Assembly (NCBI GenBank): GCA_012727915.1 | Contig: JAAYGD010000002.1 | Span: 1-39,783, forward strand | Length of the DNA: 39,783 nt | Source: Mycoplasmatota bacterium | Lineage (GTDB): Bacteria > Bacillota_I > Bacilli_A > RF39 > UBA660 | Direction of reading: 5' to 3' | Translations under genes and position numbers: made by a program | Notes under the pieces: generated by a model | Seen by the model: the letters and a program-made list of their open reading frames with translations, nothing else | What the model was told of the DNA's origin: nothing | The model's database searches: none | Shown: positions 17,046 to 34,431 of the stretch, piece by piece | Position numbering within the stretch: position 1 is the first letter of the stretch | Layout of the letters: every line of letters starts with the position of its first letter

Positions 17046-17061
17046 ACTTACTCCTTTTATA

Positions 17062-17658
17062 CTACATATCATCAGTTACTATAACATTTCTTTCTATTAT
17101 ATTTGAATTTTGATAAAAATACTTCAAAACATATACCCCTTCTTTAGAAGTATCTACAGTACCCGAAAATGCTGCTACATTAGAATTAGTATTTGTACCA
17201 TCAAACCCAATTGCTCCCGGATCTACATAAGGTGTTCCCAATTTTACTTTATCATTAAAAAAACCCTTTAAAGTAATAGTAGATTTATTTTTTTGATCAA
17301 TATCATAAGTAGTTTTAATGTTATTATTATAATCTAAAGTTATATAAATAACGTCATCAATAAATAACGTCTCATTATTCATAGGATTTTTTATATTTGC
17401 ACCAATATAATTATTATCAATCAAGGTTTTTAAGCTTAAATTCATAAATCCAAATCTATTTAATTCATCTAAATCTCTTATATTATCTGTTGCATATTTC
17501 TTAGCTGCTATTTCTATATTATTTACTTGAGCTTCCATTGCTTTTGTTTTAGTTTCTTTCATTTTATCACTTAAAATTGGAATTGTAATAGTAATTAATA
17601 TCATTATAATAATTAAAACCGCTAAAACCTCTATTAATGTAAATCCATTATTTTTCAT
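17062..17658 (-). CDS. Type IV pilin-like protein with one Ig-like (DUF5011-type) domain
   Basis: MKNNG|FTLIEVLAVL, IE.AAK.Y, L..LI...Y.....NP, then ITLKG...Y.DPGA...GTVDTSK.GVY...Y...R.V.V. Confidence 0.85.
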   Translation of the reverse strand: MKNNGFTLIEVLAVLIIIMILITITIPILSDKMKETKTKAMEAQVNNIEIAAKKYATDNIRDLDELNRFGFMNLSLKTLIDNNYIGANIKNPMNNETLFIDDVIYITLDYNNNIKTTYDIDQKNKSTITLKGFFNDKVKLGTPYVDPGAIGFDGTNTNSNVAAFSGTVDTSKEGVYVLKYFYQNSNIIERNVIVTDDM

Positions 17659-17685: not shown

Positions 17686-19008
17686 TTATTTATCTATTTT
17701 TATTATTATTTGATATAATCTTTCAAAATCAAACTCTTCATAATCAATCTTTACTCCACTATTTTGAATACTTTCAATTATTTTTTTAATCATATTTTTT
17801 GAATTTGATATATCCCCTCTATCTTCTTTCGGTTTAACTTCATCATTAATAATGAATCTATTTTGAGATATAGGTTCTTCTTGAAAATTATTTTGAACTT
17901 TATCTGATTCTAATAACTTATCAATATCAAATCCTGAAGAAGTATTTAATGATTGATTTTCATTATTATTAATATTTATAGGTTCAGCATAATTGGATTG
18001 TGGTGTTAAATAACTATCTTTTATATCTTTTCTTGGAATTACATATGGACTAGGATTAACTAAAGTAGCTTCTTTAAATATATTTAAATTTGTATCATTT
18101 TCAATATTACTTAATCTATTTATTATTTCCATTTGTGGATTTTCTTCATAATTATTATGTGGTTCAGCCTTTTTTTCTTCAATCTCTTCTTTAACTTCTT
18201 CATAAACGAATGGTTTTGGAGCATTTATAATTGGTTTAGTTTCTTCAACTTCATTTTCAATATTTTCTAAATTGAAGTTCATTATGTTGTTTGGTCTTTG
18301 ATTTTCAATAACTTCTTCTTCTATTTTTTTAGGTTGAACCGGAACATCTTCAATTATTTCAGATTCTTTATTATGCATTATTTCTTCCACAACTTCTTCA
18401 ACACCGTATCTTTCTTTAATAATATCATCTGTAGCTTTTACTGTTAATTTATTATTTATTATTTCATTTAACATTTTTTGTTGTTCATTATTGTCCTTAA
18501 TAGATAATAAACTTCTTGCATGTCTTTCAGATATTTCTTCCTTTACTAGAGCTTCTTGTACTTTTTCGTCCAAAGATAAAAGTCTAAGTTTATTTGCAAT
18601 ATATGATTGACTTTTTCCCAAACTAATTCCCAATTGCTCTTGAGTAATGCCTCTTTGTAATAATTTTTTATAGGATTTTGCCTCTTCTAATGCTGACATG
18701 TTTTTCCTATGAAGATTCTCTACTATTGCAACCTCTGCACTTTTGTTATCATCTAAATCAACAACAATAGCAGGAACTTTGCTTAACCCAATTATTTGAG
18801 ATGCTTTATATCTTCTTTCTCCCGCAATTATTTCGTATTTTTCTCCCAGTTTTCTTACTACTAAAGGTTGTATTATTCCATGTTGTTTTATAGAATCCGC
18901 TAATTCCATTAAAGATTTTTGATCAAAATTTAATCTAGGTTGAAATCTATTTGGAATTATTTCATCTAAAAATATTTCTTTTATTTCTTTTTCTAATTCT
19001 TCGTTCAT
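17686..19008 (-). CDS. noc: ParB-family CTPase of the Noc (nucleoid occlusion) subtype with large low-complexity insertion
   Basis: IIPNRFQPR, HGIIQP, GERR, HTH GKSQSYIANKLRLL...ISERHAR (Noc-type), Noc-like C-terminus SGVK...EE.DFE..YQI.IKI.K; directly after rsmG. Confidence 0.8.
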   Translation of the reverse strand: MNEELEKEIKEIFLDEIIPNRFQPRLNFDQKSLMELADSIKQHGIIQPLVVRKLGEKYEIIAGERRYKASQIIGLSKVPAIVVDLDDNKSAEVAIVENLHRKNMSALEEAKSYKKLLQRGITQEQLGISLGKSQSYIANKLRLLSLDEKVQEALVKEEISERHARSLLSIKDNNEQQKMLNEIINNKLTVKATDDIIKERYGVEEVVEEIMHNKESEIIEDVPVQPKKIEEEVIENQRPNNIMNFNLENIENEVEETKPIINAPKPFVYEEVKEEIEEKKAEPHNNYEENPQMEIINRLSNIENDTNLNIFKEATLVNPSPYVIPRKDIKDSYLTPQSNYAEPININNNENQSLNTSSGFDIDKLLESDKVQNNFQEEPISQNRFIINDEVKPKEDRGDISNSKNMIKKIIESIQNSGVKIDYEEFDFERLYQIIIKIDK

Positions 19009-19076
19009 ATTAATTACACCCTCTTATTCTTATATCTAATATAATACTAAATAATACTAAAAAAAACAATGTTTTT

Positions 19077-19778
19077 CTATTTTAAAGGATTATCAACAAT
19101 GTTTTTATAACTTCTAGGATATTTTTCATCACATTTCTTATATTTATTTATTTTTATTAATGATCTTTTACTATTTTCAATTGGTAAATAAAATTCATAA
19201 ATTTTTTCAATTTTACTATTTAGTAACTTTAAATATTCAATATTTTCAATTTCAGAATTAATTTCTCCTTTCATAGGAATAAAATAACCTCCTATTTTTG
19301 TCATAGGAATACAAATTTCAGATATAGTATTTAATTTTGATAAAGCTCTACAAGTTACTAAATCATATTTATTTTTGTTGTTTTTTGAATATTCTTCTGC
19401 TCTTATGTTTATAATTTCTATATTAATTTTTAATTTTTTAACTAATTCTTTTAAAAAAACTGTTTTTTTATTAATAGATTCAATTAAAGTTACTTCTATG
19501 TTGGGAAATAATATTTTTATTACTACTCCTGGAAATCCAGCACCTGTTCCTACATCACATAAAGTATTTACTTTTTTTAAATCAATTGCTTTATATAAAG
19601 TTAAACTATCAAAAAAATGTTTTAAATAAATATCTTTTTTATTAATTATAGAAGTAAGATTAACTTTTTTATTATATTCAATCAAAAAATCACTATAATA
19701 CCTTAGTTTTTTTAACTGTTCTTCGTTAATTTCTATATTTAATTCTTTTAAATACTCTATAAATTCTATTTCATTCAT
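19077..19778 (-). CDS. rsmG: 16S rRNA m7G527 methyltransferase
   Basis: NLTSI, KHF.DS, DVGTGAGFPG, RAE, YPR. Confidence 0.96.
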   Translation of the reverse strand: MNEIEFIEYLKELNIEINEEQLKKLRYYSDFLIEYNKKVNLTSIINKKDIYLKHFFDSLTLYKAIDLKKVNTLCDVGTGAGFPGVVIKILFPNIEVTLIESINKKTVFLKELVKKLKINIEIINIRAEEYSKNNKNKYDLVTCRALSKLNTISEICIPMTKIGGYFIPMKGEINSEIENIEYLKLLNSKIEKIYEFYLPIENSKRSLIKINKYKKCDEKYPRSYKNIVDNPLK

Positions 19779-21585
19779 TTTTAAAATACCTTTTCATATA
19801 TACCAATAAAACAGATATATCAGATAAATTTACTCCACTTATTCTACTAGCTTGACCAATTGATTTAGGTCTTATTTTAATTAATTTTTGTCTTGCTTCT
19901 GTTGCTAAATTTTTTATTTGATTATAATCAATATTTTCAGGTATTGATTTATATTCAAGTTTTAACATATTTTCAGCGTTTTTTGATGTTTTTTTAATAT
20001 ATCCCTCATATTTAATTATGATTTCAACTTGTTCTAACTCTTCATCAGTATATTTTTTTTCTAATAAATCTTTAATAGAATTAATATTTGATTCGGTATG
20101 TTTCAAATATTCATATATTGTTTCTTTAGAATTTGCTTTAATTTTTTTACATTTATCAAATAATTCATTTATATTTTCTTTCTTTTTTTCAAATTTTTGA
20201 TGTTTTTGTTTTTCTATAAGACCTATTTTATATCCATAATCCATTAATCTTAAATCAGCGTTATCATGTCTTAATAAAAGTCTGTATTCAGCTCTTGACG
20301 TTAATAATCTATATGGTTCGCTTGTCCCTTTTGTTATCAAATCATCAATTAATACTCCAATATATGCTTCATTTCTAGTCAATACAAATGGTTCTTTGTT
20401 TTCTAATTTAAAAACAGCATTTATACCTGCCATTAAACCTTGACAAGCTGCTTCTTCATAACCACTAGTTCCATTAATCTGACCAGCAGTAAATAAATTA
20501 TTAATTATTTTAGTTTCAAGAGTATTTTTTAATTGTGTAGGATTTATTGCATCATATTCAATAGCATATGCATATTTTTTTATTATTGCATTTTCCAATC
20601 CTGGTAAGCTATGCACTAATTTATCTTGAACTTCTCTTGGCATACTAGTAGAAAAACCTTGTAAATATATATCGTCATAATATAAGCTTTCTGGTTCTAA
20701 AAATATTTGATGAGTATCTTTATCTTCAAATTTTACTATTTTATCTTCAAAAGAAGGACAATATCTAGGCCCAACACCTAATTTTTCTTCAATTGCTCCA
20801 TATATACTTGATTTATTTAAATTATCTAATATTATTTGTTTTGTTTCTTTTGTAGAATGTACTAAATGACAAGGTACTTGGTTTTTAACATCATAATATA
20901 CCTTATTATCAAAACTAAATGTATATTCTTCTTCAGATCCTTGTTCAATTTTTGTTTTTGAAAAATCAATTGAAGATTTTTCAATTCTTTGAGGAGTGCC
21001 AGTTTTAAGTCTAATTATTTCAAAACCATATTTTTTTAAATTATCACTTAAATATAAAGAAGGTTTTTGTTCCATAGGACCCATTCTTGTTCTAATATTT
21101 CCAACTAAAATATCACTTTTTAAATATGTTCCTGTTGTTAATATTACAACTCTTGAATATATTTTTTCTCCATTTTCTAAAATTATACCTTTAACTTCTC
21201 TGTTTTCTATTATTAAATTTTCGACCATATTTTCTAATAAATCTAAATTATGTTGATTCTTTAAAGTATTTAGCATTTCTTTTGGATATGTTACTTTATC
21301 TGCTTGGCATCTTAAACTTCTTACAGCAGGACCTTTTCCTGTATTTAACATTTTCATTTGGATAAGTGTTTTATCAGCACACTTGCCCATTTCTCCACCT
21401 AGAGCATCAATTTCCCTTACTACAATTCCCTTTGCACTTCCTCCAATTGAAGGATTACAAGGCATTTGAGCAACAATATCAAAGTTTCCAGTTACTAACA
21501 ATGTTTTATGACACAAACGTGAAGTAGCTAAAGCTGCTTCACATCCAGCATGTCCTCCACCAACTACAATAACTTCATAATTCAT
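19771..21585 (-). CDS. mnmG: tRNA uridine 5-carboxymethylaminomethyl modification enzyme
   Basis: GGGHAGCEAA, CNPSIGG.AKG, RLKTGTP, GPRYCPS.EDK, AGQINGTSGYEEAA.QG. Confidence 0.98.
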   Translation of the reverse strand: MNYEVIVVGGGHAGCEAALATSRLCHKTLLVTGNFDIVAQMPCNPSIGGSAKGIVVREIDALGGEMGKCADKTLIQMKMLNTGKGPAVRSLRCQADKVTYPKEMLNTLKNQHNLDLLENMVENLIIENREVKGIILENGEKIYSRVVILTTGTYLKSDILVGNIRTRMGPMEQKPSLYLSDNLKKYGFEIIRLKTGTPQRIEKSSIDFSKTKIEQGSEEEYTFSFDNKVYYDVKNQVPCHLVHSTKETKQIILDNLNKSSIYGAIEEKLGVGPRYCPSFEDKIVKFEDKDTHQIFLEPESLYYDDIYLQGFSTSMPREVQDKLVHSLPGLENAIIKKYAYAIEYDAINPTQLKNTLETKIINNLFTAGQINGTSGYEEAACQGLMAGINAVFKLENKEPFVLTRNEAYIGVLIDDLITKGTSEPYRLLTSRAEYRLLLRHDNADLRLMDYGYKIGLIEKQKHQKFEKKKENINELFDKCKKIKANSKETIYEYLKHTESNINSIKDLLEKKYTDEELEQVEIIIKYEGYIKKTSKNAENMLKLEYKSIPENIDYNQIKNLATEARQKLIKIRPKSIGQASRISGVNLSDISVLLVYMKRYFKNE

Positions 21586-21643
21586 AATATCACCCAATTC
21601 GAAAACAAATTATACTTTATATATTATATAAAATCAATATAAA

Positions 21644-22762
21644 TTAAAAAGTTTTTATTGGTACAATTAATTGAATTAAATTATCTTCTTCAGTTGATTT
21701 TAATATTATTGGTTTAATTTCTCCACTTAATAATATTGAAGTATATTCACTTTTTATAGTTCTTAATGCTTCCATCATATATTTAGATGAATAAGAAATA
21801 TTAAGTAATACATTATTATCCTTTTCTACAATAATTCTTTCTTCAATTTTACCTATTTCTTGAGAAGTAGAACTAATTACTACTTCTTTGTCTTTTATTT
21901 CCATATTAATAACATTTTTATCTTTTTCAGATGTTAATAATGATGCTCTATCAATTGCGTTATATAAATCCTCAGTATTTACTTTTATCTTTAATGTAGG
22001 TTCAATTATTATTAATTTTGAAGTATCAGGATAATTTCCATTTAATAATCTTGATTGAAATATTATATTATCAAATTTAAATAACACATTATTAGAAAAA
22101 ATATGCATTTCAATTTTTTCGTTTTCTTCATTTATTATTTTTGATAATTCAATTAAATTTCTTCCTGGTATTACTAAATTAACTTCTTCTTCTATTTTTT
22201 CTTCAATATTAATTATTTTTTTTGATAATCTATATGAATCTGTTGCTACACATTCTATTATTCTATCTTTAATTTTAAAATTAATTCCTGTTAATATAGG
22301 TCTAGATTCTTGATTAGAAATTGCAAAAGAAGTTTGATTAATAATGTTTTTTATTACATTTTTATCTATTTTTATTAGATTTTTTGATAATTCTAATGAT
22401 TTATCAGGAAATTCATCGGGATTCATACCATTTAAATTATATTCACCATTTATCGTACTAATTGTAAGATTTAATCCATCAGTAATTATTTCAATTAAAT
22501 CACTTGGTATTTTTCTTATTAATTCAATAAAATATCTTCCTATAATTACTATACTTCCTTTATTATTAATTTTTTCTATATCTTTTTTCTCAATAAAGGA
22601 TCTTATTGTTATTTCATTATCACTACATGTTAAATATAAACCTTCTTCTGATAAGTCTAATTTAACTCCTCCTAATATAGGTATTATATTTTTATTAGAA
22701 ATAGCTTTTGATACATTGTTTAAATTTTCTAAAAGTAATTCTTTTTTTATTATAAAATTCAT
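21644..22762 (-). CDS. dnaN: DNA polymerase III beta clamp
   Basis: PILGG, QESRPILTG, VATDSYRLS, SRLL.G.YPD, QLIVP. Confidence 0.97.
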   Translation of the reverse strand: MNFIIKKELLLENLNNVSKAISNKNIIPILGGVKLDLSEEGLYLTCSDNEITIRSFIEKKDIEKINNKGSIVIIGRYFIELIRKIPSDLIEIITDGLNLTISTINGEYNLNGMNPDEFPDKSLELSKNLIKIDKNVIKNIINQTSFAISNQESRPILTGINFKIKDRIIECVATDSYRLSKKIINIEEKIEEEVNLVIPGRNLIELSKIINEENEKIEMHIFSNNVLFKFDNIIFQSRLLNGNYPDTSKLIIIEPTLKIKVNTEDLYNAIDRASLLTSEKDKNVINMEIKDKEVVISSTSQEIGKIEERIIVEKDNNVLLNISYSSKYMMEALRTIKSEYTSILLSGEIKPIILKSTEEDNLIQLIVPIKTF

Positions 22763-22865
22763 TATTAATATTCCTTTCTTATTTTTATATTTATTATTAT
22801 AGTTAATATTGTTGATAACTTAATTATACCTTATTTTTCATTACCTTTTTTAATATTTGTTAACA
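22763..22865. promoter_or_regulatory. dnaA-dnaN intergenic part of oriC (candidate unwinding region)
   Basis: One-mismatch DnaA box (TTATCAACA on minus strand, 22810-22818) followed toward dnaN by an almost pure A/T tract; same position as Bacillus incC. Confidence 0.55.
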
Positions 22866-24215
22866 TTATTTAAGTTTCTTTTTCAACAAGTCTATAGAAT
22901 TTTTAAAATCTTTATCTTTTTTTATTTCTTCTTCTATTTTATTGCATGAATGTATAACTGTTGTATGATCCCTACCTCCAAATTCTATACCAATTCTTGG
23001 AAAACTTTCTTCAGTTAAATTTCTAGATAAAAACATTGCTACTTGTCTGGGAAGTACAAAATTTTTATTTCTTTTCTTTGAATTCATATCTTCTAAAGTT
23101 ATTTGATAATAATCACAAACTATTTTTTGAATTTTTTGTATATTATTTTTCATATAAGAATTGGAATTCAAAAAGTCACTTAAAGCTTCTTTAGCAACAT
23201 CTAATTCAATTTTTTCTTTATTAAACATTACTGTGTACGCAAATAATCTATTTAAAGCTCCTTCTAATTTTCTTACATCAGATGTGCAATTATTTGCAAT
23301 AAATATTAAGACATCTTCAGAAATAGGTTTTGCAACTTCATGAGCACTAATTTTTTTCTTTAATATTTCTATTCTTAACTCATAATCAGGAGGAAAAATA
23401 TTTACTGCTAATCCCCAATTAAATCTTGTTCTCAATCTTTCTTCTAATAGTTTTAAATCATCGGGAGATCTATCAGAAGATATTATTATTTGTTTTCCTT
23501 CTTGATGTAATTCATTAAAAGTATGAAAAAATTCTGTTTGACTTTCTGTTGCTCCCGCTAAAAATTGTATATCATCTATAATGAGAACATCAATATTTCT
23601 ATATTTATTTTTAAATGAGTCAACATTATCCATATTATTTTCATCATGTTTTCTTTTATTTATAGCAATAAAATCAGATTTAAATTTGTCACTTGTTATA
23701 TATAATACTTTTTTATTAGTTTCACTAACTATATAATTTCCAATGGCATGCATTAAATGTGTTTTTCCTAAACCACTACTACCATATAAAAACAATGGAT
23801 TATATGCTTTACCAGGTCTTTCCGCAACAGCAAAAGCAGCGGTAAAAGCCATTCTATTTGTTTCTCCAATAACAAAAGTATCAAATGTGTAGTTAGAATT
23901 TAAATTAGCTTGAATTGGATTATTGAATGGAACACCTTCTTCAATTTTATCAATTTTTTTATCATTTATTTCTTCTTCCAACAAAAACTCAAAATCAAAA
24001 TTAGTACCAGTCAATTTATTCATATTTTCTTTAATAATATCATAATATGTTTCTGATAAGTTTTTTTTATGAAGATTCATTGGAACTATAATATACATTT
24101 TTTTATTTTCAACTTTATGAAGTCTTGTTTCACTGAACCATGCATCAAATGCAATAGGAACTAATTTTTCTTTAATTAAATTCAAAAAATTTATCCACAG
24201 ATCTTTTTCATCCAT
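22866..24215 (-). CDS. dnaA: Chromosomal replication initiator
   Basis: YNPLFLYG.SGLGKTHL, IDDIQF, EFFHTFN, R.LEGAL, PRQVAM.L, FGGRDHTTV.H. Confidence 0.98.
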   Translation of the reverse strand: MDEKDLWINFLNLIKEKLVPIAFDAWFSETRLHKVENKKMYIIVPMNLHKKNLSETYYDIIKENMNKLTGTNFDFEFLLEEEINDKKIDKIEEGVPFNNPIQANLNSNYTFDTFVIGETNRMAFTAAFAVAERPGKAYNPLFLYGSSGLGKTHLMHAIGNYIVSETNKKVLYITSDKFKSDFIAINKRKHDENNMDNVDSFKNKYRNIDVLIIDDIQFLAGATESQTEFFHTFNELHQEGKQIIISSDRSPDDLKLLEERLRTRFNWGLAVNIFPPDYELRIEILKKKISAHEVAKPISEDVLIFIANNCTSDVRKLEGALNRLFAYTVMFNKEKIELDVAKEALSDFLNSNSYMKNNIQKIQKIVCDYYQITLEDMNSKKRNKNFVLPRQVAMFLSRNLTEESFPRIGIEFGGRDHTTVIHSCNKIEEEIKKDKDFKNSIDLLKKKLK

Positions 24216-24436
24216 AATTACTTCTCCTTGATTTTATTTCTTTATTACATTACTATTGTAAATCATTTTGCCTAAAAATTAAACAAAAAAAGTTAATTAA
24301 CAATATATAAACATATTTATCCACAAGATATTTAGGTATATTTAAATACTATATGAGTAGTTATCCACAAATTTCAATAATAATCTTATCAACATACAAA
24401 ATAAATAATTCAATTAAGTTGTTAATATGTTGATAA
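24191..24436. promoter_or_regulatory. oriC DnaA-box cluster / dnaA-rpmH divergent promoter region
   Basis: Perfect TTATCCACA at 24191 (inside dnaA), 24317 and 24361; TTATCAACA at 24386 and inverted at 24428; gene orientation flips here. Confidence 0.88.
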
Positions 24437-24503
24437 CATTTTAATTGACTTTTAATGGTAATACCATTATAATTATAGTGATTTAAGGACAGGAGGAATT
24501 ACA

Positions 24504-24632
24504 ATGAAAAGAACATATCAACCAAACAAATTAAAAGCAAAAAAGACTCATGGTTTTTTAGCAAGAAAAAAAGCAGATACTGGAGTGGTTGCTTCAAGAA
24601 GAAAAAAACAAAGAAAGAAATTGACAAAATAA
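24504..24632 (+). CDS. rpmH: 50S ribosomal protein L34
   Basis: Hand translation [51 protein letters not shown]; divergent from dnaA, before rnpA. Not in the ORF track. Confidence 0.95.
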
Positions 24633-24675
24633 AACACCTCAATGTGTTTTTTTGTTATGAAGTAAGGTAAATACA

Positions 24676-24996
24676 ATGAAAAAAATTAATATTGTAAAAT
24701 CTAATAAAGACTTCGATAACATAATAAAAAATGGATTATTTATTAATAATAAATACTTCAATGTATATTATATAAACAATAATAATAATATATATAGAAT
24801 AGGTGTTTCTGTACCCAAAAAAATTGGAAAAGCTGTTATTAGAAACAAATTAAAAAGACAAGTAAAGAATATTTTAGATTATAATAAAGAAAAAATAAAA
24901 ACATACGATTATATTATTATGTTAAGAAAAAGTTCTCTTGATATAGAATATAAAGAAAAAGAGCAAGAATTGATAAAATTATTAAATAAGTTATAG
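24676..24996 (+). CDS. rnpA: Ribonuclease P protein component
   Basis: RIGVSVPKKIGKAVIRNKLKRQ (RNR motif). Confidence 0.95.
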   Translation: MKKINIVKSNKDFDNIIKNGLFINNKYFNVYYINNNNNIYRIGVSVPKKIGKAVIRNKLKRQVKNILDYNKEKIKTYDYIIMLRKSSLDIEYKEKEQELIKLLNKL

Positions 24997-25004
24997 GAGA
25001 AAAT

Positions 25005-26024
25005 ATGTACAAAAAAATAATTCTTATAATATTGATGCTATTTATATTTACTGGATGTTCAAAAACATTAGTAGATAAAGATAAAAAACCAATTAAATAT
25101 GAAGCAAGTTATATTTGTGATACTTGTGATTTTTCTTGTGAAAAAGAAGAAAATAAAGATGAGTGTTTGATTGATTGTATTGAAAAGTGTGAAATTGCAA
25201 AAGAAAATGAAACTGGTCAAACTTTAACAGAAAATATTCTTTGTAAACCAACTAATAAAGATGTTATGGAAATATATGAAAATAATAATGTTGATTTGTC
25301 TAAATTACAAGATTGTGACGAGTATAAAATTTCTTCTGGAGAATATGAAGGATTATGGGATACAATTTTTGTTAAACCATTAGCGTGGCTTATATTAAAA
25401 TTAGGTAATATTTTAAATAATTATGGAATATCTTTAGTAATAATAAGTATTTTAATAAGAATAGTATTATTACCTGTTACAAAAAGTACAGCTTTACAAT
25501 CAGAAAACATTAAAGTTGCACAACCTGAGATAAAAAAGATAGAAAAAAAATATGAAGGAAAAACAGATCAAGAATCTCTTATGAAAAAGAGTCAAGAAAC
25601 AATGGCAATATATAAAAAATATAAAATTAACCCAATGTCTAGTTGTTTGTTTGCAGTTATTCAAATTCCTCTATTATTCGCGTTTATTGAAGCAATAAAT
25701 AGAACTCCAGCCATATTTGAGGGTAGTTTATTAGGATTGAAATTAGGAATGACTCCATTGATTGCTATTCAAAAAGGTGCATGGTGGTACATAATAATAG
25801 TAATTTTACTTGGAGTAATAACATATTTATCATTTAAATTAAATAAAGGCGCCCCATCAAATTTAGATAATCAAAAACAAATGAATATAATGAATACTGT
25901 ATTTGTAGTAATGATAATATTTATGTCATTCTCAATGGCAAGCGCTATAAGCATTTATTGGATATCTTCAAATATATTTACAATACTGCAAAATATTGTT
26001 GTAAAAAGGAGGAGCGAAAAATGA
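25005..26024 (+). CDS. yidC: Membrane protein insertase YidC/SpoIIIJ (lipoprotein) with Cys-rich insert
   Basis: Lipobox FTGC, W..IFV.PL, YG..L....ILIR..LLP, QPEI..I..KY, YKKY.INP..C...IQ.P, YW..SN.F..LQ. Confidence 0.93.
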   Translation: MYKKIILIILMLFIFTGCSKTLVDKDKKPIKYEASYICDTCDFSCEKEENKDECLIDCIEKCEIAKENETGQTLTENILCKPTNKDVMEIYENNNVDLSKLQDCDEYKISSGEYEGLWDTIFVKPLAWLILKLGNILNNYGISLVIISILIRIVLLPVTKSTALQSENIKVAQPEIKKIEKKYEGKTDQESLMKKSQETMAIYKKYKINPMSSCLFAVIQIPLLFAFIEAINRTPAIFEGSLLGLKLGMTPLIAIQKGAWWYIIIVILLGVITYLSFKLNKGAPSNLDNQKQMNIMNTVFVVMIIFMSFSMASAISIYWISSNIFTILQNIVVKRRSEK

Positions 26025-26635
26025 TAAAAGTACATGAATATTTAGAAAAAAACATAGATGTTGCTAAAGAAAAAATGTTATATGAGCTTGAAACATCAGA
26101 AAAAGATATTTTAATTAAAGAAAGCGAAGAGACAACTGGAGGATTATTCAAATCAAAAAAATCAAAAATTGAAGTAATTTTAAAAGACGATATTATTGAA
26201 TATTCAAAGCAATTGATTATAGATATTGCAGAAAAGATGGGATTAGAAATAAAAATAGAGGCAAAAAAAAGAGATGACTTTATCAAATTAAATTTAATAT
26301 CTAATAATAATGCAATACTTATAGGTAAAAATGGAAAAACACTTGATTCTTTACAAACAATATTAAGAAGCTCTATTCAAAATCATACAGGGTTTAAGGT
26401 TAATATAATAATTGATATAGAGGATTATAGAGAAAAGCAACAGAGAAATATTGAAAGAAACATAAAAAATATAGCTTATGAAGTCAAAAATACAGGAGTA
26501 CCAGTCACATTAGATCCAATGAATTCATATGAAAGAAGAAATGTTCACAATATTTGTGGAAACATCCCCGGTATTACAACCGAATCAATTGGAGAAGAAC
26601 CGGAAAGATATATTGTTATAAAAAGAAAAGAATAG
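26021..26635 (+). CDS. jag: RNA-binding protein Jag/KhpB (KH + R3H)
   Basis: GGLF, LIGKNGKTLDSLQ, D.E.YR, L.PMNSYERR.VH, S.GEEP.R; ATG 26021 with AGGAGG RBS. Confidence 0.93.
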   Translation: MIKVHEYLEKNIDVAKEKMLYELETSEKDILIKESEETTGGLFKSKKSKIEVILKDDIIEYSKQLIIDIAEKMGLEIKIEAKKRDDFIKLNLISNNNAILIGKNGKTLDSLQTILRSSIQNHTGFKVNIIIDIEDYREKQQRNIERNIKNIAYEVKNTGVPVTLDPMNSYERRNVHNICGNIPGITTESIGEEPERYIVIKRKE

Positions 26636-26655
26636 AGATTAATCTCTATTTTTTT
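26631..26655 (+). terminator. Terminator after jag
   Basis: Palindrome AATAGAGATTAATCTCTATT including the stop, followed by a T-run; a TG-extended TATAAT follows immediately. Confidence 0.6.
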
Positions 26656-26680
26656 GTTATAATTATTTTGGGTGATTGTT

Positions 26681-28027
26681 ATGGAAGACACAATTGTAGG
26701 AATTTCATCTTCTTTAGGTATAGGTGCAATATCTATTATTAGAATGAGTGGAAAAGAATCTTTTGAAATTGTAAACAAAATATTTACACAAAATATTTTA
26801 AACGTAGATTCTCATACAATTCATTATGGGCACATAAAAGAAAACAACAAATTAATTGATGAAGTTTTAGTAAGTGTTATGAAAGCTCCAAAAACATATA
26901 CAAGAGAAGACATAATAGAGATTAATTGCCATGGGGGTATAATTACCACTAATAAAATTTTAGAATTACTAATAAAAAATGGTGCAAGATTAGCGGAGCC
27001 TGGAGAATTTACAAAAAGGGCATTTTTAAATGGAAGAATAGATTTAATTGAAGCTGAAGCCATTATGGATTTAATTAATTCAAAAAGTGAAAGTGCTAGA
27101 AAGTTAGCAATTAATGGGTTAAGTGGTAACGTTACATTGATGATAGAAAATTTAAGAAATAAAATATCTAAAATATTATCAAATATAGAAGCAAATATTG
27201 ATTATCCTGAATATGAAGATATATTAGTTATGACTAAAGAGTTAATAAAAAAAGAGATAATAATTATTGAAGCAGAAATAAATAAAATAATTAAAGAATC
27301 AGAAAATTCAAAAATAATAAAAAATGGTATAGATACAGTAATACTTGGAAAACCAAATGTAGGAAAAAGTAGTTTATTAAACAAGCTTATTGGTGAAGAA
27401 AAAGCTATAGTAACTAATATTCCCGGAACTACAAGAGATTTTGTAGAAGGAACCATAGTTATTGATTCAGTATTATTTAATATTTTTGATACCGCAGGAA
27501 TTAGAGAAACTCACAATAAAATTGAACAAATAGGAGTTTCAAAATCAATTAATTTAATAAATACTTCTGATGTTGTAATTTTAGTTTTTGATAACAATAG
27601 AAAAATTCAAAAAGAAGATATGCAATTGTTAAATTTAACAAAGGATAAAAAAAGAATAATAGTAATAAATAAAATAGATTTAGAAAGCAAATTAGATAAA
27701 AAATTACTAAGCGGAGACATAGTAGAAATAAGTGCTTTAAATAACAATATTAAGCCATTAAAAGACAAATTAATAGAAATGTTTAATATAGATAGCATTA
27801 ATAAAAAGGATCCTAATTATTTATTTAATACAAGACAAATATCTACCCTTAAAAAAACACTAAATAACATTTTAGAATTAAAAAAAGGCATAAAAAACAA
27901 TTTACCTGTAGATATATTAGAAATAGATATAATGGAAATATGGAAATTATTAGGTGAAATAATAGGAAAAAACTATAACGAAGAATTAGTTGAAGAAATA
28001 TTTAAGAATTTTTGTTTGGGAAAATAG
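26681..28027 (+). CDS. mnmE: tRNA modification GTPase
   Basis: DTI..I, EINCHGG, PGEFT.RAFLNG, GKPNVGKSSLLN, PGTTRD, DTAGIR, NKID, FCLGK. Confidence 0.98.
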   Translation: MEDTIVGISSSLGIGAISIIRMSGKESFEIVNKIFTQNILNVDSHTIHYGHIKENNKLIDEVLVSVMKAPKTYTREDIIEINCHGGIITTNKILELLIKNGARLAEPGEFTKRAFLNGRIDLIEAEAIMDLINSKSESARKLAINGLSGNVTLMIENLRNKISKILSNIEANIDYPEYEDILVMTKELIKKEIIIIEAEINKIIKESENSKIIKNGIDTVILGKPNVGKSSLLNKLIGEEKAIVTNIPGTTRDFVEGTIVIDSVLFNIFDTAGIRETHNKIEQIGVSKSINLINTSDVVILVFDNNRKIQKEDMQLLNLTKDKKRIIVINKIDLESKLDKKLLSGDIVEISALNNNIKPLKDKLIEMFNIDSINKKDPNYLFNTRQISTLKKTLNNILELKKGIKNNLPVDILEIDIMEIWKLLGEIIGKNYNEELVEEIFKNFCLGK

Positions 28028-28035
28028 GTTTTTAT

Positions 28036-29145
28036 ATGATATTAAAAGAATTAGAATTAAAAAACTTCAGAAATTACGATGATTTAAAATTATCTTTTTC
28101 AAATAATGTTAATATTTTTTATGGAAATAATGCTGAAGGAAAGACAAATATATTAGAAAGCATTTATTTTTTGGCTATTACCAAGTCACATCGAACAAAT
28201 ATTGATAAATCATTATTAAAAAACGATAAACTATTTTCAAAAATAAAAGGTATAGTTGAATCAAATAACAATGTTAACAAATTTGAAATATTAATTAATA
28301 GTAAAGGGAAAAGTGTAAAAATTAATAATCAAACTATTAAAAAAATAAGTAATTATATATCAAAATTTAATGTGATTATGTTCTATCCAAACGATATGGA
28401 GCTTATAAAAGGTAATCCTTCAATAAGAAGAAAATATTTAAATATAGAAATAGGTCAAGTAAACAACAAATATTTATCATTATTAAACGAGTATAATATT
28501 CTTATAAAAAATAGAAATGAATATATAAAAAACAAACTATTTAAAGAAATAGATTTAAATTATATTTCTACAATAGATGAGCAAATTTCGAAAAAAGGAG
28601 CTCAAATTATTATTATAAGAAATCAATATATTAATAAAATAAATATCAACACAAAAAATATATACAACAATATTTTTGGTAATGGAGAATTAACAATAAA
28701 ATATAAAACAAATATAGAAATTGATAATTATGAATTAGAAAATATTGAAAAGATTTTTTATAATAAATTAAAAAACAACATTAAAAGAGATAATTTTTTG
28801 GGAATGACTTATTATGGACCGCATAGAGATGATCTAACATTTTATATTGATGATATTGAAGTAAAGGAACAATCTTCTCAAGGTCAACAAAGAATCATAG
28901 TTATTTGCATGAAACTTGGAGAAATAGAAATAATAAAGGAAAATACTAAGGAATATCCTATTTTATTACTAGATGATATATTTAGTGAATTAGATGAAAA
29001 TAAAAAAAATAACATATTAAAATATTTAAAAAAAGAAATTCAAACATTTATTACTACAACAGATATAAACAAAATAAGTAGTAATTTATTAAAAAACGGA
29101 AATATTTATCTTATCAAAAATCAAAATATTATAAAAAAACAATAA
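28036..29145 (+). CDS. recF: DNA replication/repair protein RecF
   Basis: NFRNY, GNNAEGKTN.LE, GPHRDD, SQGQQR, LLLDDIFSELD. Confidence 0.96.
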   Translation: MILKELELKNFRNYDDLKLSFSNNVNIFYGNNAEGKTNILESIYFLAITKSHRTNIDKSLLKNDKLFSKIKGIVESNNNVNKFEILINSKGKSVKINNQTIKKISNYISKFNVIMFYPNDMELIKGNPSIRRKYLNIEIGQVNNKYLSLLNEYNILIKNRNEYIKNKLFKEIDLNYISTIDEQISKKGAQIIIIRNQYINKININTKNIYNNIFGNGELTIKYKTNIEIDNYELENIEKIFYNKLKNNIKRDNFLGMTYYGPHRDDLTFYIDDIEVKEQSSQGQQRIIVICMKLGEIEIIKENTKEYPILLLDDIFSELDENKKNNILKYLKKEIQTFITTTDINKISSNLLKNGNIYLIKNQNIIKKQ

Positions 29146-29266
29146 AAATTATTTTAACTTATAAAATCGCTTAAATTTGTGGTATAATTATTATGTAAGT
29201 ATTAATCTACACAAAAAAACATTATAGCCATAAAAAGGGCGATTTTTTATTGATAAGGAGAAATAT

Positions 29267-31192
29267 ATGGAAAACATTAATAATTTACACTATGATTCGT
29301 CTGATATTCAAGTATTAGAAGGTTTAGAAGCTGTTAGAAAAAGACCGGGTATGTATATTGGTACAACCGGATCTAAAGGATTACATCATTTGGTATGGGA
29401 AATTGTTGATAATGCAGTAGATGAAGCGTTAGCGGGTTATTGTGATGATATTGAAATAACTATAGAAAAAAACAATATAATTACAGTAAAAGATGATGGA
29501 AGAGGAATTCCAATTGATATACATCCTAAAACCGGAGTGTCTACAGTTGAAACGGTTTATACTGTTCTTCACGCGGGTGGAAAATTTGGAAACGGAGGAT
29601 ATAAAGTATCGGGAGGCCTACATGGTGTAGGAGCATCTGTAGTAAATGCATTAAGTTCTTTTTTAGAAGTTACAGTATATAAAGAGGGAAAAATATATTT
29701 TCAAAGGTTCAAAAATGGGGGAAAACCCGAAGATATTTTGAAAATTATTGGTGAATGTGACATAAACAGAACAGGAACCACAGTTAGTTTTAAAGCTGAT
29801 CCGACTATTTTTGAAGAAACAATCGAGTATGATTATGATATTTTAAAAAACAGAACAAGAGAGCTAGCTTTTTTAAATAAAGGGCTTAGATTTATATTAA
29901 CTGATGAAAGAGAAGATACTAAAAAGGATATATTTATCTATGAAGGTGGAATATCAGAGTACGTAAATTTATTAAATAAAAATAAGACACCAATACATAA
30001 GGATATTATATATTTTGAAGAGACGGAAGAAGATATAAAAATAGATATTTCGTTACAATATACTGATACATATACTGAAAACATATATTCTTTTGTTAAT
30101 AATATTAATACCTATGAAGGTGGAACACATGATGAAGGTGTCAAAAGAGCATTAACAAGAATAATTAACAATTACGCAAAAACAAATGGTTATTTAAAAC
30201 AAAATGATGAAGCTTTGATTGGTGAAGATGTTAGAGAAGGTTTAACTATGATAATATCTGTTAAACATCCTAACCCTCAATTTGAAGGTCAAACAAAAAC
30301 AAAACTTGGAAACACAGAAATTAGAAAAATATCAGATAACATTTTTTCTAATGGATTAGAGAGATATTTACTTGAAAATCCTGAAGAAGCTAGAAAGATA
30401 ATGGATAAAGTTTTTTCTGCAGCAAGAGCAAGAATGGCTGCTAAGAAAGCAAGAGAGTTAACAAGAAGAAAAGGATTACTAGATATTTCTAACCAATGGG
30501 AAAAATTAACTGATTGTTCTAGTAAAGATCCAACAATATCTGAAATATTTATTGTGGAAGGGCGAAGTGCAGAAGGCCCAGCCAAACAAGGAAGAGATTC
30601 CAAAACACAAGCTGTAATTCCTATTAGAGGAAAAATATTAAATGTTGAAAAATCTAGGCTTGATAGAATATTAGGAAACGAAGAAATAAGAAATTTAATT
30701 ACTGCATTTGGTACTGGTATTGGTGAAGAATTTGACTATACAAAATTAAGATATTATAAAATAATTATAATGACAGACGCAGATGTTGACGGATCACACA
30801 TTAGAACTTTATTGTTAACTTTTTTATATAGATATTTTAAGCCTTTGGTTGAGAAAGGTCATGTTTATGCTGCTCAACCACCATTATTTAGAATATCTCA
30901 TGGTAAAACACAAAAATATGTGCTTAATGAAAAAGAAAGAGATGAATATATTTCTACTTTACCAGAAAATACAAAAGTTGAGATAGTAAGAATGAAAGGT
31001 CTTGGAGAAATGGACGCTATTGAACTAAGAGAAACCACTATGAGTGTTAATTCGAGAACTTTAATAAGATTAAATGTTGAAGATGCAATTGTTGCGGATG
31101 AAACTTTTCAACTATTAATGGGTGAAGAAGTAGAACCACGTAGACAATTTATAGAAGAAAATGCATTAAAAGTAAGAAATCTAGATGTATAA
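29267..31192 (+). CDS. gyrB: DNA gyrase subunit B
   Basis: [71 protein letters not shown] at ~29180. Confidence 0.97.
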
Positions 31193-31202
31193 AGGAGAAG
31201 AT

Positions 31203-33632
31203 ATGGAAGAAAAAAATATTGATAAAATAGAAGATATAAATTTATCTTCAGAAATAAAAAATTCTTTTCTCGATTATTCTATGAGTGTTATTGTATCAAG
31301 AGCTATTCCTGATGTAAGAGATGGATTAAAACCAGTTCATAGAAGAATATTATATACTATGTATGAAGAAGGTATGACACCAGATAGAAAACATCAAAAA
31401 AGCGCTAATGCTGTTGGAGCTGTAATGGGACATTATCATCCTCATGGAGATTCAGCAATATACGATAGTATGGCTAGAATGGCTCAAGATTTCACATATA
31501 GGCACGTCCTTGTTGATGGTCATGGAAACTTTGGCTCAGGTGATGGCGATAGTCCGGCTGCTTCGCGTTATACAGAAGCTAGATTATCAAAAATATCAAT
31601 GGAGTTATTAAGAGACATAAACAAGAATACTGTTGATTTTATTGATAATTATGATGGTCAAAGAAAAGAACCAACTATACTTCCTTCTAGATTTCCTAAT
31701 ATATTAATTAATGGTAATATGGGTATTGCGGTAGGAATGGCAACAAATATACCTCCTCATAATTTGGGAGAAGTCATTGATGGCTGTGTTGCTTTTATAG
31801 ATAATCCTGATATTTCAGTATTAGAATTGATGCAACATATTAAAGGACCAGATTTTCCTACATATGGATTTATTATAGGAAATAGTGGAATAAAAAAAGC
31901 CTATGAAACAGGGAGAGGATCAATAACTTTAAGAGGAAAAGCAAAAATTATTGAAGAAGAAAACAAAAAAAGCCAAATTGTTATTACCGAAGTGCCTTAT
32001 CAAGTTAGCAAAACAAATGACTTAACTAAAAAAATTGGAGAATTAATTCGAAACAAGCAAATAGATGGTATAAGTGATTTGCATGATGAATCAACACTTG
32101 AAGGAATTAAATTAACAATTGATTTAAAAAAAGAAGCAAATGCAAACGTAGTTTTAAACAATCTATATAAACATACACCTTTACAAATAAATTATGGGAT
32201 TAATTTATTAATGTTGGTAGATGGAAGGCCTAAAACATTGGGCTTAAAAGAAATATTAAGATATTATGTAGAATATCAAAAAAGCATAATTGTACGAAGA
32301 ACACAATTCGATTTAGAAAAATCTAGAGCTAGAGAGCATATTTTAGAAGGATTAAAAATTGCATTAGATAATATTGACGAAATTGTTAAAATTTTAAAAA
32401 GTTCAAAAGACGATAATAAAGCAAAAGAAGAATTAAAATTAAGATTTGGACTAACTGATATACAGTCCGAAGCAATTTTAGAAATGAAATTAAGGAGATT
32501 GACTGGTCTCGAAAGAGGAAAAATCGAAGAAGAACTTAAACAATTATTAGAATTAATTAAAGAATTGGAATCAATTCTTAATGATTCTAAGAAAGTATTG
32601 GATATAATCAAAAAAGAGATGATTGAAATTAAAGACAAATATTCAAACGAAAGAAGAACTATTATAGATACTTCTTCTATTGAAAATATAGAAGACGAAG
32701 AATTGATAACAAGAGAAGAGATAATAGTTACACTTACGAATAATGGATATATAAAAAGATTACCTTTAGATACCTATAGAATACAAAATAGAGGCGGAAC
32801 AGGAATAAAAGGTATGAATACTAATGAAGAAGATTTTGTCGAGAATTTAATAATGCTAAATACTCATGATTATCTATTATTATTTTCAGATAAAGGGTTA
32901 ATTTACAGAATTAAAGGTTATGAGGTTCCAGAATTTAGTAGGCAATCAAAAGGTTTACCAATTGTAAACTTGATTCCTTTGGAAAAAGAAGAAAAAATAA
33001 CTTCAATATTAAAAATAACTAAAGAAGAAGAAAATAAATGCTTATTGTTTGTAACAAAAAGAGGATTAGTTAAAAGATGTAATGTTTCAGAGTTTGAAAA
33101 TATTAGAAAAACCGGAAAAATTGCTATTAAATTAAAAGAAAGCGATAAATTAATAGCGGTGTTAAAAACTGATGGCAATACCGAAGTAGTCATGGCTTCT
33201 TCCACCGGAAAAATGGTTAGATTCGATGAGAATGAGATAAGAATAATGGGAAGAAATGCAACAGGAGTAAGGGGAATTAATTTAGAAAAAGATGCTATAT
33301 GTATTGATGCAAACATATCTGATAGTAATAGCGAAGTATTGGTCGTAAGCGAAAATGGATATGGTAAAAGGACATCAATTGAAGAGTATAGAAAAACTAA
33401 AAGAGGTAGTAAGGGAGTTAAAACACTAAATGCTACTAATAAAACGGGTAAGATCGTTGCGTTTAAGCTTGTAAATAACGAAGAGGATTTAATGATAATA
33501 ACAGATTTTGGTATGATTATACGAATTCCTATAGTTCAAATATCAAAAATGAGTAGAGTCACTCAAGGAGTAAGATTAATTAATTTAAAAGAAAACCAAA
33601 AAGTATCATCTGTATTTAATATAAAAGAATAA
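31203..33632 (+). CDS. gyrA: DNA gyrase subunit A
   Basis: [20 protein letters not shown] catalytic Tyr, [14 protein letters not shown], GyrA-box QNRGGTG, pinwheel repeats; ATG 31203 with AAGGAG RBS. Confidence 0.97.
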
Positions 33633-33648
33633 TGATAAACATGCATTT

Positions 33649-33664
33649 TATTTCCCGGGAAATA
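33649..33664. promoter_or_regulatory. Noc-binding site (NBS) 1
   Basis: Perfect palindrome TATTTCCCGGGAAATA, equal to the B. subtilis NBS consensus. Confidence 0.85.
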
Positions 33665-33672
33665 ATAAAAAA

Positions 33673-33688
33673 TATTTCCCGGGAAATA
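33673..33688. promoter_or_regulatory. Noc-binding site (NBS) 2 (may double as gyrA terminator)
   Basis: Second TATTTCCCGGGAAATA, centre of a 30-bp palindrome (33666-33695) ending in a T-run. Confidence 0.85.
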
Positions 33689-33694
33689 TTTTTT

Positions 33695-33823
33695 AATGTT
33701 CCACGTGAAACATAAACCAGATTAAAAGATATAGAACAATGTTCCACGTGAAACATAAGCAAGATTAAAAGATATAGAACAATGTTCCACGTGAAACATA
33801 AGCAAGATTAAAAGATATAGAAC
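33695..33823. repeat. 3 x 43-bp tandem repeat, each unit carrying a parS site
   Basis: Unit AATGTTCCACGTGAAACATAAGCAAGATTAAAAGATATAGAAC; parS TGTTCCACGTGAAACA at 33697, 33740 and 33783; unit 1 differs by two bases. Confidence 0.95.
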
Positions 33824-33852
33824 AAAGCTTCAAACAAAACTAAGCAAATAAG

Positions 33853-33881
33853 TTGATAAATTTTCGTTATTATAATATACT
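33853..33881 (+). promoter_or_regulatory. SigA promoter of the SRP RNA
   Basis: TTGATA-N17-TATACT ending 7 nt before the RNA's first paired base. Confidence 0.65.
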
Positions 33882-33887
33882 TATATA

Positions 33888-33961
33888 GACGTAACAAACC
33901 CCTTAATATAATTGGTCAGGATCGAAAGATAGCAGCCCTATTAAGTGGGATTGTGTACGTC
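33888..33961 (+). ncRNA. ffs: Small signal recognition particle RNA (4.5S type)
   Basis: Domain IV GGTCAGG-ATC-GAAA-GAT-AGCAGCC within a long hairpin (GACGTA/TACGTC, ACAA/TTGT, CCC/GGG, CTTAATA/TATTAAG), then T6; next to tadA-dnaX as in Bacilli. Confidence 0.9.
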
Positions 33962-33970
33962 GTTTTTTAA

Positions 33971-33986
33971 TGTTCCACGTGGAACA
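33971..33986. promoter_or_regulatory. parS site 4
   Basis: Perfect palindrome TGTTCCACGTGGAACA directly before the tadA RBS. Confidence 0.9.
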
Positions 33987-33999
33987 TAAAAGGAGAATT

Positions 34000-34431
34000 A
34001 TGAACGAAGAAAAGTATATGAAAATAGCAATTAAAGAAGCAAGAAAAGCTTTTCTTAATAAAGAAATACCTGTAGGAGCAGTTATAGTATATAAAAATAA
34101 AATAATAGCAAAAGGATATAACAAGAAAGAAAAAACAAACAATCCACTTAATCACGCAGAAATTATTGCAATAAAAAAAGCGTGTAATAAATTAAAAGAT
34201 TGGAGATTAAATGAATGTTTACTATTTGTAAACTTGGAACCTTGTTTAATGTGTATGGGAGCAATAATTGAATGCAGAATTAAAAAAGTTTACTGTTCTG
34301 TAAAAAACAAACAATTCAATTCATCTTATAATAAAATGATAAAGGAAAGAAAACCAAATATTTCGTATGGATTGTGCGAAAAAGAATCAACCTTGTTAAT
34401 TAATGATTTTTTTAGAGAAATAAGAAAATAA
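34000..34431 (+). CDS. tadA: tRNA adenosine(34) deaminase
   Basis: EIPVGAVIV, HAE, WRL, LEPCLMC.GAI, FF..IR; ATG 34000 with AAGGAG RBS; upstream of dnaX. Confidence 0.88.
   Translation: MNEEKYMKIAIKEARKAFLNKEIPVGAVIVYKNKIIAKGYNKKEKTNNPLNHAEIIAIKKACNKLKDWRLNECLLFVNLEPCLMCMGAIIECRIKKVYCSVKNKQFNSSYNKMIKERKPNISYGLCEKESTLLINDFFREIRK

Follow-up and report, generated by a model that had tools for sequence, protein, structure and literature searches.

Layout of the array after gyrA

The DNA analysed here, called the window throughout, is a 39,783-nucleotide stretch of contig JAAYGD010000002.1 from a Mycoplasmatota bacterium (assembly GCA_012727915.1). Our subject is a group of short palindromes downstream of gyrA. 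These match the binding sites of two paralogous ParB-family proteins: the Noc binding site (NBS) and parS, the site of Spo0J. The gyrA gene ends at position 33632, and tadA is the next gene after the array. A sequence-only reading of the window had placed two NBSs, three parS sites, the small signal recognition particle (SRP) RNA and a fourth parS within 340 bp after gyrA. Motif scans and a search against Rfam confirmed this layout. The features are listed below in window coordinates, with the strand where one applies.

17686..19008, minus strand: Noc-clade ParB paralogue of 440 amino acids (aa), with ParB_N and HTH_ParB, a linker and a C-terminal domain (profiles, alignment, tree, AlphaFold2)
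24191..24436: oriC marker, a DnaA-box cluster (DnaA-box scan and GC skew)
33649..33664: NBS 1 (motif scan; unique to the locus in the genome)
33649..33694, plus strand: terminator-like hairpin after gyrA (terminator scan and folding)
33673..33688: NBS 2, identical palindrome (motif scan)
33695..33825: 43-bp tandem array, 3.0 copies, one parS each (repeat search)
33697..33712: parS 1, TGTTCCACGTGAAACA (motif scan)
33740..33755: parS 2 (motif scan)
33783..33798: parS 3 (motif scan)
33880..33974, plus strand: small SRP RNA, ffs (Rfam)
33971..33986: parS 4, TGTTCCACGTGGAACA, between the SRP RNA 3' end and the tadA ribosome-binding site (motif scan)

The two NBSs are identical copies of the perfect palindrome TATTTCCCGGGAAATA and start 24 bp apart. 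The first parS begins 8 bp past the second NBS. Matches between the units of the tandem repeat that carry parS 1 to 3 amount to 97%. The fourth parS differs from TGTTCCACGTGAAACA by a single change and is fully palindromic. The SRP RNA (45.7 bits; gathering score 40) is embedded in the array, and a promoter-like site is found ahead of it (33853-33881). At 33970-34000, the longest frame of tadA would place its ATG within the fourth parS. The likelier start is the ATG at 34000, which is preceded by an AAGGAG-like ribosome-binding site.

No further NBS or parS was found in the window with up to two mismatches allowed, as the sequence-only reading had noted for full copies. Shuffled sequence gave an expectation of 0.03 for the NBS and 0.00 for parS. 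We then scanned the whole assembly (873 kb in 76 contigs, 93.8% complete, 25% G+C). With up to one mismatch, neither the NBS nor parS occurred anywhere except in the locus at 33649-33986. At two mismatches, the sole other match to the NBS 14-mer in the assembly was an unrelated one on contig C70. NBSs of the Bacillus subtilis type are dispersed over the chromosome; here, there are two sites and both are at one locus.

The array is ~9.3 kb from the origin, since the DnaA boxes at 24191-24436 coincide with the sign switch of the GC skew at about 24 kb. Three of these boxes are perfect, two have one mismatch, and the cluster is between dnaA and rnpA. The earlier estimate of ~9 kb was thus accurate.

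Because the NBS palindrome is present twice, 24 bp apart, the gyrA transcript can fold so that the two copies base-pair. The result is a 16-bp stem with an 8-nt loop, followed by a run of six T residues, that begins 17 nt past the gyrA stop codon. The hairpin has a folding energy of -26.5 kcal/mol (z -6.7) and none of 200 shuffled sequences folded equally well. A terminator scan returned it as the single terminator-like site, compared with a mean of 0.3 in shuffles. Hence, the sequence has the stable stem-loop and T run, placed after a gene, of an intrinsic (Rho-independent) terminator. A lone NBS gives only a weak fold, at -3.2 kcal/mol (first copy) or -9.2 kcal/mol (second copy with its A/T flanks). 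In the relative G001, the same double NBS, 23 bp apart, adjoins gyrA. From these sequence features, termination of gyrA transcripts is very likely an additional role of the NBS pair in the genus of the window.

Two ParB-family proteins in one genome

The only ParB-family gene in the window is that at 17686-19008, positioned after rsmG on the minus strand. In the 440-aa product, ParB_N and HTH_ParB cover residues 8-199 (PF02195, 112 bits; PF17762, 106 bits). The NCBIfam model for Noc (TIGR04285) gave 279.2 bits, which is under the curated cut-off of 315; the Noc relatives of all 24 nearest family genomes scored 227-289 bits. The protein was most similar to the Nocs from Geobacillus and Bacillus that have been solved (7NFU and 7OL9), and KorB (PDB 8QA8) was a weak match. 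In a tree of 52 rows, the split between ParB and Noc had support of 100/100. The long-linker proteins of the family formed one clade (96/94) beside the classical Nocs. A Noc-like copy from genome G009, which is without the GERR motif, was excluded from this tree. By profile, alignment and tree, the 440-aa protein is a derived member of the Noc clade and not a ParB.

A search for related loci with the whole 440-aa protein returned four close relatives together with archaeal ParB-like matches. The titles of the closest public records (L016-L019) carry a Bacteroidota family label. This label is probably wrong because the gene content is that of Bacillota (RNA polymerase delta subunit, ComG pilins and Noc).

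Excerpts of the published work on Geobacillus Noc assign residues 1-26 to the amphipathic membrane helix and helix alpha-2. Residue 6 of the 440-aa protein aligns with residues 25-27 of 7NFU and 7OL9. Upstream of the open reading frame only five codons are open, so that the frame could reach 445 aa. The pattern was the same in 25 of 25 family genomes: an upstream stop leaves just 17-47 codons before the motif PNRFQPR (PNRYQPR in G009), and the probable start is 12-22 residues ahead of this motif. The classical Nocs of the class that we inspected (G032, G028 and G038) retain an F-rich N-terminus. The alignment to solved Nocs and the upstream stops are the reasons for reading the 440-aa protein and its family relatives as lacking the N-terminal amphipathic helix for membrane targeting. 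In a hydrophobic-moment scan, the N-termini of classical Nocs, used as positive controls, scored just 0.1-0.6 and did not stand out.

The linker of the 440-aa protein (residues ~205-396, ~190 residues) is disordered and acidic. Across the family, linkers range from 86 to 363 residues, their net charge is between -4 and -64, and N, Q, S, T and P are abundant. AlphaFold2 gave a per-residue confidence (pLDDT) of ~90 for residues 6-204. For residues 205-396, there were long stretches below 50 and one short helix near 70. The tail (400-438), a helix and two strands, had a pLDDT of 86 and is conserved among the family proteins. Prediction of a tail homodimer scored 0.74, compared with 0.02 for the best of three controls. 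The pLDDT was at least 78 and the contacts agreed between runs to at least 95%. In calibration, the mark was reached by 20 of the 30 solved homodimers and by one single chain out of 23. These models support homodimerisation of the tail, with a score that may mirror likeness to ParB tails, because those have been solved as dimers. The motifs for cytidine triphosphate (CTP), GERR and ENxxR, were invariant in 24 of 24 aligned Noc relatives.

We next considered which site each protein is expected to read. Alignment to solved Nocs identified Q134, K140, S145 and R162 as the specificity residues, and the earlier assignment of Q-K-S-R was correct. The accessible text of Jalal 2020 (PMC7383237) reports that Q173 reads adenine 1 of the NBS and R201 reads cytosine 6, and that one lysine, at 179 or 184, suffices for NBS reading. 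According to the same text, RxxG variants are specific to parS and dual-specific variants mostly have T or S at position 201. The Q-K-S-R set agrees with this published rule for the NBS. S or N at position 184 is ordinary variation, and N is also found in classical Nocs of the class. Q-K-S-R itself was absent from the variants in one supplementary file of Jalal 2020 (PMC7383237), of which the full fitness table could bear on specificity.

The second clamp is encoded elsewhere in the genome. Contig C41 carries a canonical pair of soj (274 aa) and spo0J (291 aa). The four specificity residues of this Spo0J, which also has an N-terminal LGKGL peptide, are R-I-N-G and belong to the parS-type RxxG class. 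Hence, the earlier statement that parAB genes are missing holds for the window and fails for the genome. A gene for SMC is present on contig C64. Four parS sites near oriC, Soj and a Spo0J with R-I-N-G together match what defines a chromosomal ParABS system. Given R-I-N-G in Spo0J and Q-K-S-R in the Noc relative, we predict that the two proteins read one site each, parS and the NBS respectively, and a promiscuous reader is unneeded. FtsZ and two DivIVA-domain genes are also present. A search of the genome for MinD found none; the only match was Soj, at 64 bits against a cut-off of 213. With no MinD found and a Noc that lacks its anchor, neither of these would account for division-site selection in this organism.

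The order of genes around oriC (window 17686-33632) is unlike that in other genera of the family. Here, dnaA-dnaN are on the minus side with mnmG-rsmG-noc, and mnmE is on the plus side with recF-gyrB-gyrA. The arrangement resembles an inversion across oriC. The soj-spo0J pair is apart from noc in the genus of the window and on the same contig as noc in several other genera. Directly downstream of the Noc-like gene (16194-17658, minus strand) are two type IV pilin-like genes. A methylation motif at the N-terminus and a surface domain of the bacterial Ig-like type are found in both products.

Distribution of the sites and of the Noc relative across the family

We examined the 24 nearest relatives, all of the same family. 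All 24 have parS, a Spo0J of ~294 aa and the long Noc relative, and 22 have between one and five perfect NBS 14-mers. In other families, 1 of 16 genomes had a perfect NBS, as one site. We then turned to 151 family genomes that are at least 90% complete and represent nearly one per genus. A perfect NBS was found in 132 of these, with a median of two sites and no more than five in 148 of the 151; a control with the reversed pattern gave 0. In an outlier with 20 sites, all belong to one tandem array with a period of ~79 bp. The absence of genome-wide scatter in the window's assembly is therefore shared with the family. Conversely, dispersed and degenerate NBSs appeared only where a classical Noc is present; in such genomes of the class, the counts of sites versus control were 18/0, 23/2, 13/3, 19/11 and 6/8.

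The position of the array is also recurrent. We fetched 32 regions, 20 of which have both flanks. In 18 of these 20, gyrA and tadA flank the array, and the SRP RNA is usually there too. Most family members have an NBS that is single or interleaved with parS. Extra single NBSs turn up repeatedly around the origin, namely past ricT, in the gap from tadA to recR or dnaX, and in that from jag to mnmE.

The question of whether NBSs and parS adjoin in related genomes was answered in three samples. First, 14 of the 24 nearest relatives have a perfect NBS no more than 100 bp from a perfect parS (17 if sites with one mismatch are allowed). In these relatives, NBS and parS often alternate within one tandem unit, and unit lengths run from 66 to ~400 bp. 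Second, we defined a strict pair as a perfect NBS and a perfect parS separated by 0-30 nt. Of 401 genomes sampled from the order, 69 had such a pair, representing 42 of 145 genera (control, 0). Third, in a class-wide sample the strict pair was present in 13 of 49 family members versus 0 of 351 genomes from 29 other families. Hence, the adjacency recurs across the family. Across 133 strict pairs, the centres were 16-44 bp apart, most commonly 24-28 bp (68 pairs, a broad mode); the pair in the window is at 24 bp. Helical phasing of the spacing was considered and rejected, since the 133 pairs, which are non-independent, show a broad mode instead. The assemblies of many relatives (L048, L049, L051, L052, L065-L067, L070 and L071) break right at the parS/NBS arrays.

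In three relatives, each composite unit includes a DnaA box (G143, L130:1241-1282; G064, L127:1228-1251; G221, L135:1039-1085). The order in these units is parS, 1-2 nt, TTATCCACA, 3 nt, NBS. Across all fetched arrays, perfect DnaA boxes were present at 0.56 per kb versus 0.069 per kb in the flanks, in a set of which the second batch was partly picked for boxes. The enrichment was confined to some of the genera: there were no perfect DnaA boxes in the unbiased first batch of arrays, and none in the array of the window. In another three genera, an NBS, perfect or with one mismatch, is directly upstream of the Noc-like gene (G007:C37:11957, G059:C1:45466 and G176:C1:72223), which hints at autoregulation. 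The assembly scan found no NBS upstream of the Noc-like gene in the genome of the window.

We next compared the occurrence of the NBS with the state of the Noc relative. All 23 NBS-bearing family genomes in this comparison have the gene; the residues are Q-K-x-R in 22 (x being S, N, A, T or L) and Q-T-T-R in one. Among 20 genomes without a perfect NBS, no Noc relative was found in four, the residues were altered in three and the protein was intact in 12; one was not examined. The altered sets were E-K-S-G (with GGRR for GERR), Q-K-N-H and V-K-T-R. Sites with one mismatch separated these groups further. In five of five genomes with an intact protein there were 13 such sites, on the contig that bears the gene. 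In five genomes in which the protein was altered or the gene missing there were two in total. Because the sites are lost where the protein is lost or altered, the palindrome appears to be tied to the Noc relative, as judged from relatives that are non-independent. Genome G009 (81% complete) has the Noc-like gene with E-K-S-G and GGRR (L082:350-1918), and has parS with no NBS (L107:1-780). The copy in G009 is degenerating or re-targeted. A replacement palindrome for the NBS was sought in G014, which has an intact protein and no perfect NBS, and in G009; none was seen.

Interpretation and comparison with known systems

Taken together, the sites and genes suggest a composite, origin-proximal array at which Spo0J would load on the four parS sites and the helix-less Noc relative on the two NBSs. 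We give this reading a probability of roughly 0.68. The sequence-only reading had offered two clamps side by side, with a repurposed helix-less Noc, as one of two options. The recurrent adjacency, the unscattered NBSs and the membership of the Noc clade all fit that option. By comparison with work on Bacillus and Caulobacter, each dimer would nucleate on its own palindrome, close as a CTP clamp and slide outward. Some 10-20 kb around oriC would then carry a mixed file of two clamps. The long acidic tether might widen the lumen of the clamp and expose a polyanionic arm.

The Noc relative has no amphipathic helix and therefore should not be capable of nucleoid occlusion by membrane tethering. 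Nor, at about two sites per genome, can it mark the bulk of the chromosome. Hence, we read the protein as an accessory that serves the partition complex specifically at the origin. That it acts in origin organisation, segregation or initiation control is a guess by analogy. A broader proposal is that, in this Min-less family of gut Bacilli with small genomes, Noc has turned into a second centromere protein, and that a complex of two clamps, co-loaded from a single interleaved array that in some genera has a DnaA box between the two kinds of site, couples segregation to initiation or to the choice of division site. This extension is possible and, on balance, doubtful.

Several points weigh against the composite array as a functional unit. 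Some 6% of the genome is absent from the assembly and could contain more sites. The terminator is a sufficient alternative role for the NBS pair in the window. Tight adjacency is not universal: 17% of the sampled genomes of the order have a perfect pair within 30 nt, and in several relatives the NBS is 1.7-6.5 kb from parS. Given these distant sites and the solitary NBSs of the origin region, adjacency may not be required. The loose spacing of 16-44 bp, in pairs that are non-independent, disfavours a rigid protein-protein geometry. The family genomes are related, so our counts overstate independence, and copy numbers of arrays are lower bounds because many arrays end contigs. G014 and 11 other genomes have an intact Q-K-x-R protein and yet no perfect NBS. 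Conversely, G020 carries three perfect NBSs although its protein has Q-T-T-R (L093:338-1711), in which neither 179 nor 184 is a lysine. These sites (L064:6072-6979) are interleaved with parS and conflict with the one-lysine rule, which was derived on a Caulobacter ParB scaffold. Finally, we infer everything in this reading beyond the presence of the sites and genes.

The rival that survives best is neutral co-location. Here, Spo0J and the Noc relative would each bind their own sites, and these would share the gyrA-tadA spacer because both kinds need to be close to oriC and a reduced genome offers few other sizeable non-coding gaps. The NBSs would hitch-hike on duplication of parS units, and the adjacency would have no function. 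The variability of the adjacency, which is missing in many family members, is as this predicts, and so are the loose spacing and the solitary NBSs in other gaps of the origin region. Units within a genome are near-identical (97% here), as expected of recent duplication. In G037, from another family, parS follows gyrA and a solitary NBS is 5.4 kb away. However, tight pairs are found in 42 of 145 genera, with differing unit lengths and spacer sequences. The spacing also has a mode (68 of 133 pairs at 24-28 bp), and some sites abut at 16-17 bp. On this evidence, we consider neutral co-location unlikely.

The Noc relative could instead be mainly a long-range regulator of transcription resembling KorB, acting on ffs, tadA-dnaX, gyrBA and its own gene. 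Clamps of the ParB family that regulate transcription are known, KorB being one. Moreover, NBSs occur in gaps that bear promoters, and upstream of the Noc-like gene in G007, G059 and G176. Such a role would leave the interleaving with parS unexplained, and in the window no NBS is ahead of the Noc-like gene and the sites follow gyrA instead of preceding it. Regulation as the main role is improbable.

Still less probable is that the palindromes are RNA or DNA structure only, in the form of a gyrA terminator, and are not bound by protein. The strong hairpin of the NBS pair, with its T6 run directly past the gyrA stop codon, and the same double site in G001 are what this would produce. However, a single copy folds weakly and the exact 14-mer is present in 132 of 151 genomes, often as a lone copy within an array or in another gap. 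The palindrome is also identical to the published NBS, and sites vanish where the Noc relative has been lost. Since the palindrome is conserved family-wide at other positions, termination is not its sole role. Thus, of the terminator-only suggestion made earlier, the strong hairpin stands and the exclusivity does not. Termination is likely an added use and not the cause of NBS conservation.

That a single ParB-family protein of relaxed specificity, with Q-K-S-R, reads both NBS and parS was the other option of the sequence-only reading; the lone ParB-family gene in the window and the S at position 184, where B. subtilis Noc has K, prompted it, and it is scarcely credible given the presence of a canonical soj-spo0J (R..G) both here and in 24 of 24 relatives searched, the fit of Q-K-S-R to the NBS rule, N at 184 in classical Nocs of the class as well, and R at 201, where the dual-specific variants in the accessible text of PMC7383237 mostly have T or S.

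If the composite array is real, its interest is as follows. Noc and ParB are the textbook example of a duplicated clamp, the copies of which have diverged in site, distribution and job. Here, the Noc site and the Noc clade are retained, the membrane anchor and the dispersed sites are gone, and the NBS appears wired into the centromere of ParB. Were the clamps to share one track, the array would offer a system for studying how differing CTP clamps coexist or collide on DNA, and what a clamp does with a tether of 200 residues. It would likewise bear on septum placement, or on restraint of initiation, in a walled bacterium without MinD or classical nucleoid occlusion. Two-colour DNA labelling with ParB and Noc is reportedly already in use, and the perfect, compact arrays are ready-made parts for such tools. 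A full-text search of the literature returned nothing on interleaved NBS-parS arrays or on a Noc with a long linker and no anchor.

The closest known system is Noc and its NBSs in B. subtilis and Staphylococcus aureus, as described in the accessible text of PMC8429893, PMC7383237 and PMC5540599. Common to both are the clade, the NBS palindrome of 14/16 bp, Q173/K179/R201, the GERR and ENxxR motifs, and the order of N-terminal, DNA-binding and C-terminal domains. Unlike those proteins, that in the window is without the N-terminal amphipathic helix and falls under the NCBIfam cut-off (279 versus 315). The linker alone has 86-363 residues in the family, whereas sampled classical Nocs total just 242-288 aa. 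Sites differ too. The family has about two perfect NBSs, clustered near the origin and interleaved with parS, whereas published Noc sites are, in the passages available, 'scattered around the chromosome'. For S. aureus Noc, the accessible part of PMC5540599 gives 41 major peaks.

With the Spo0J-parS-Soj systems of Firmicutes that operate with SMC, the genome shares parS within 10 kb of oriC, Soj, an RxxG Spo0J with LGKGL, and SMC. The difference is that the array also contains sites for a second clamp, a paralogue of the first, often in the same tandem unit.

S. aureus Noc restrains DnaA-dependent initiation, according to the accessible text of Pang et al. 2017 (PMC5540599). The likeness would be an origin-related role beyond division control, and some genera of the family have DnaA boxes between parS and NBS. 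Conversely, S. aureus Noc retains dispersed sites and division control, and the array of the window has no DnaA box. A link between the Noc relative and initiation control of the S. aureus kind is conjecture by analogy.

MipZ-ParB of Caulobacter is an origin-anchored regulator of division, in which MipZ is a ParA-like ATPase that binds ParB. The candidate described here differs in that it is itself a ParB paralogue, with no known effect on FtsZ. The likeness is that a factor held at segregated origins could mark positions in a cell that lacks MinD, as none was found here.

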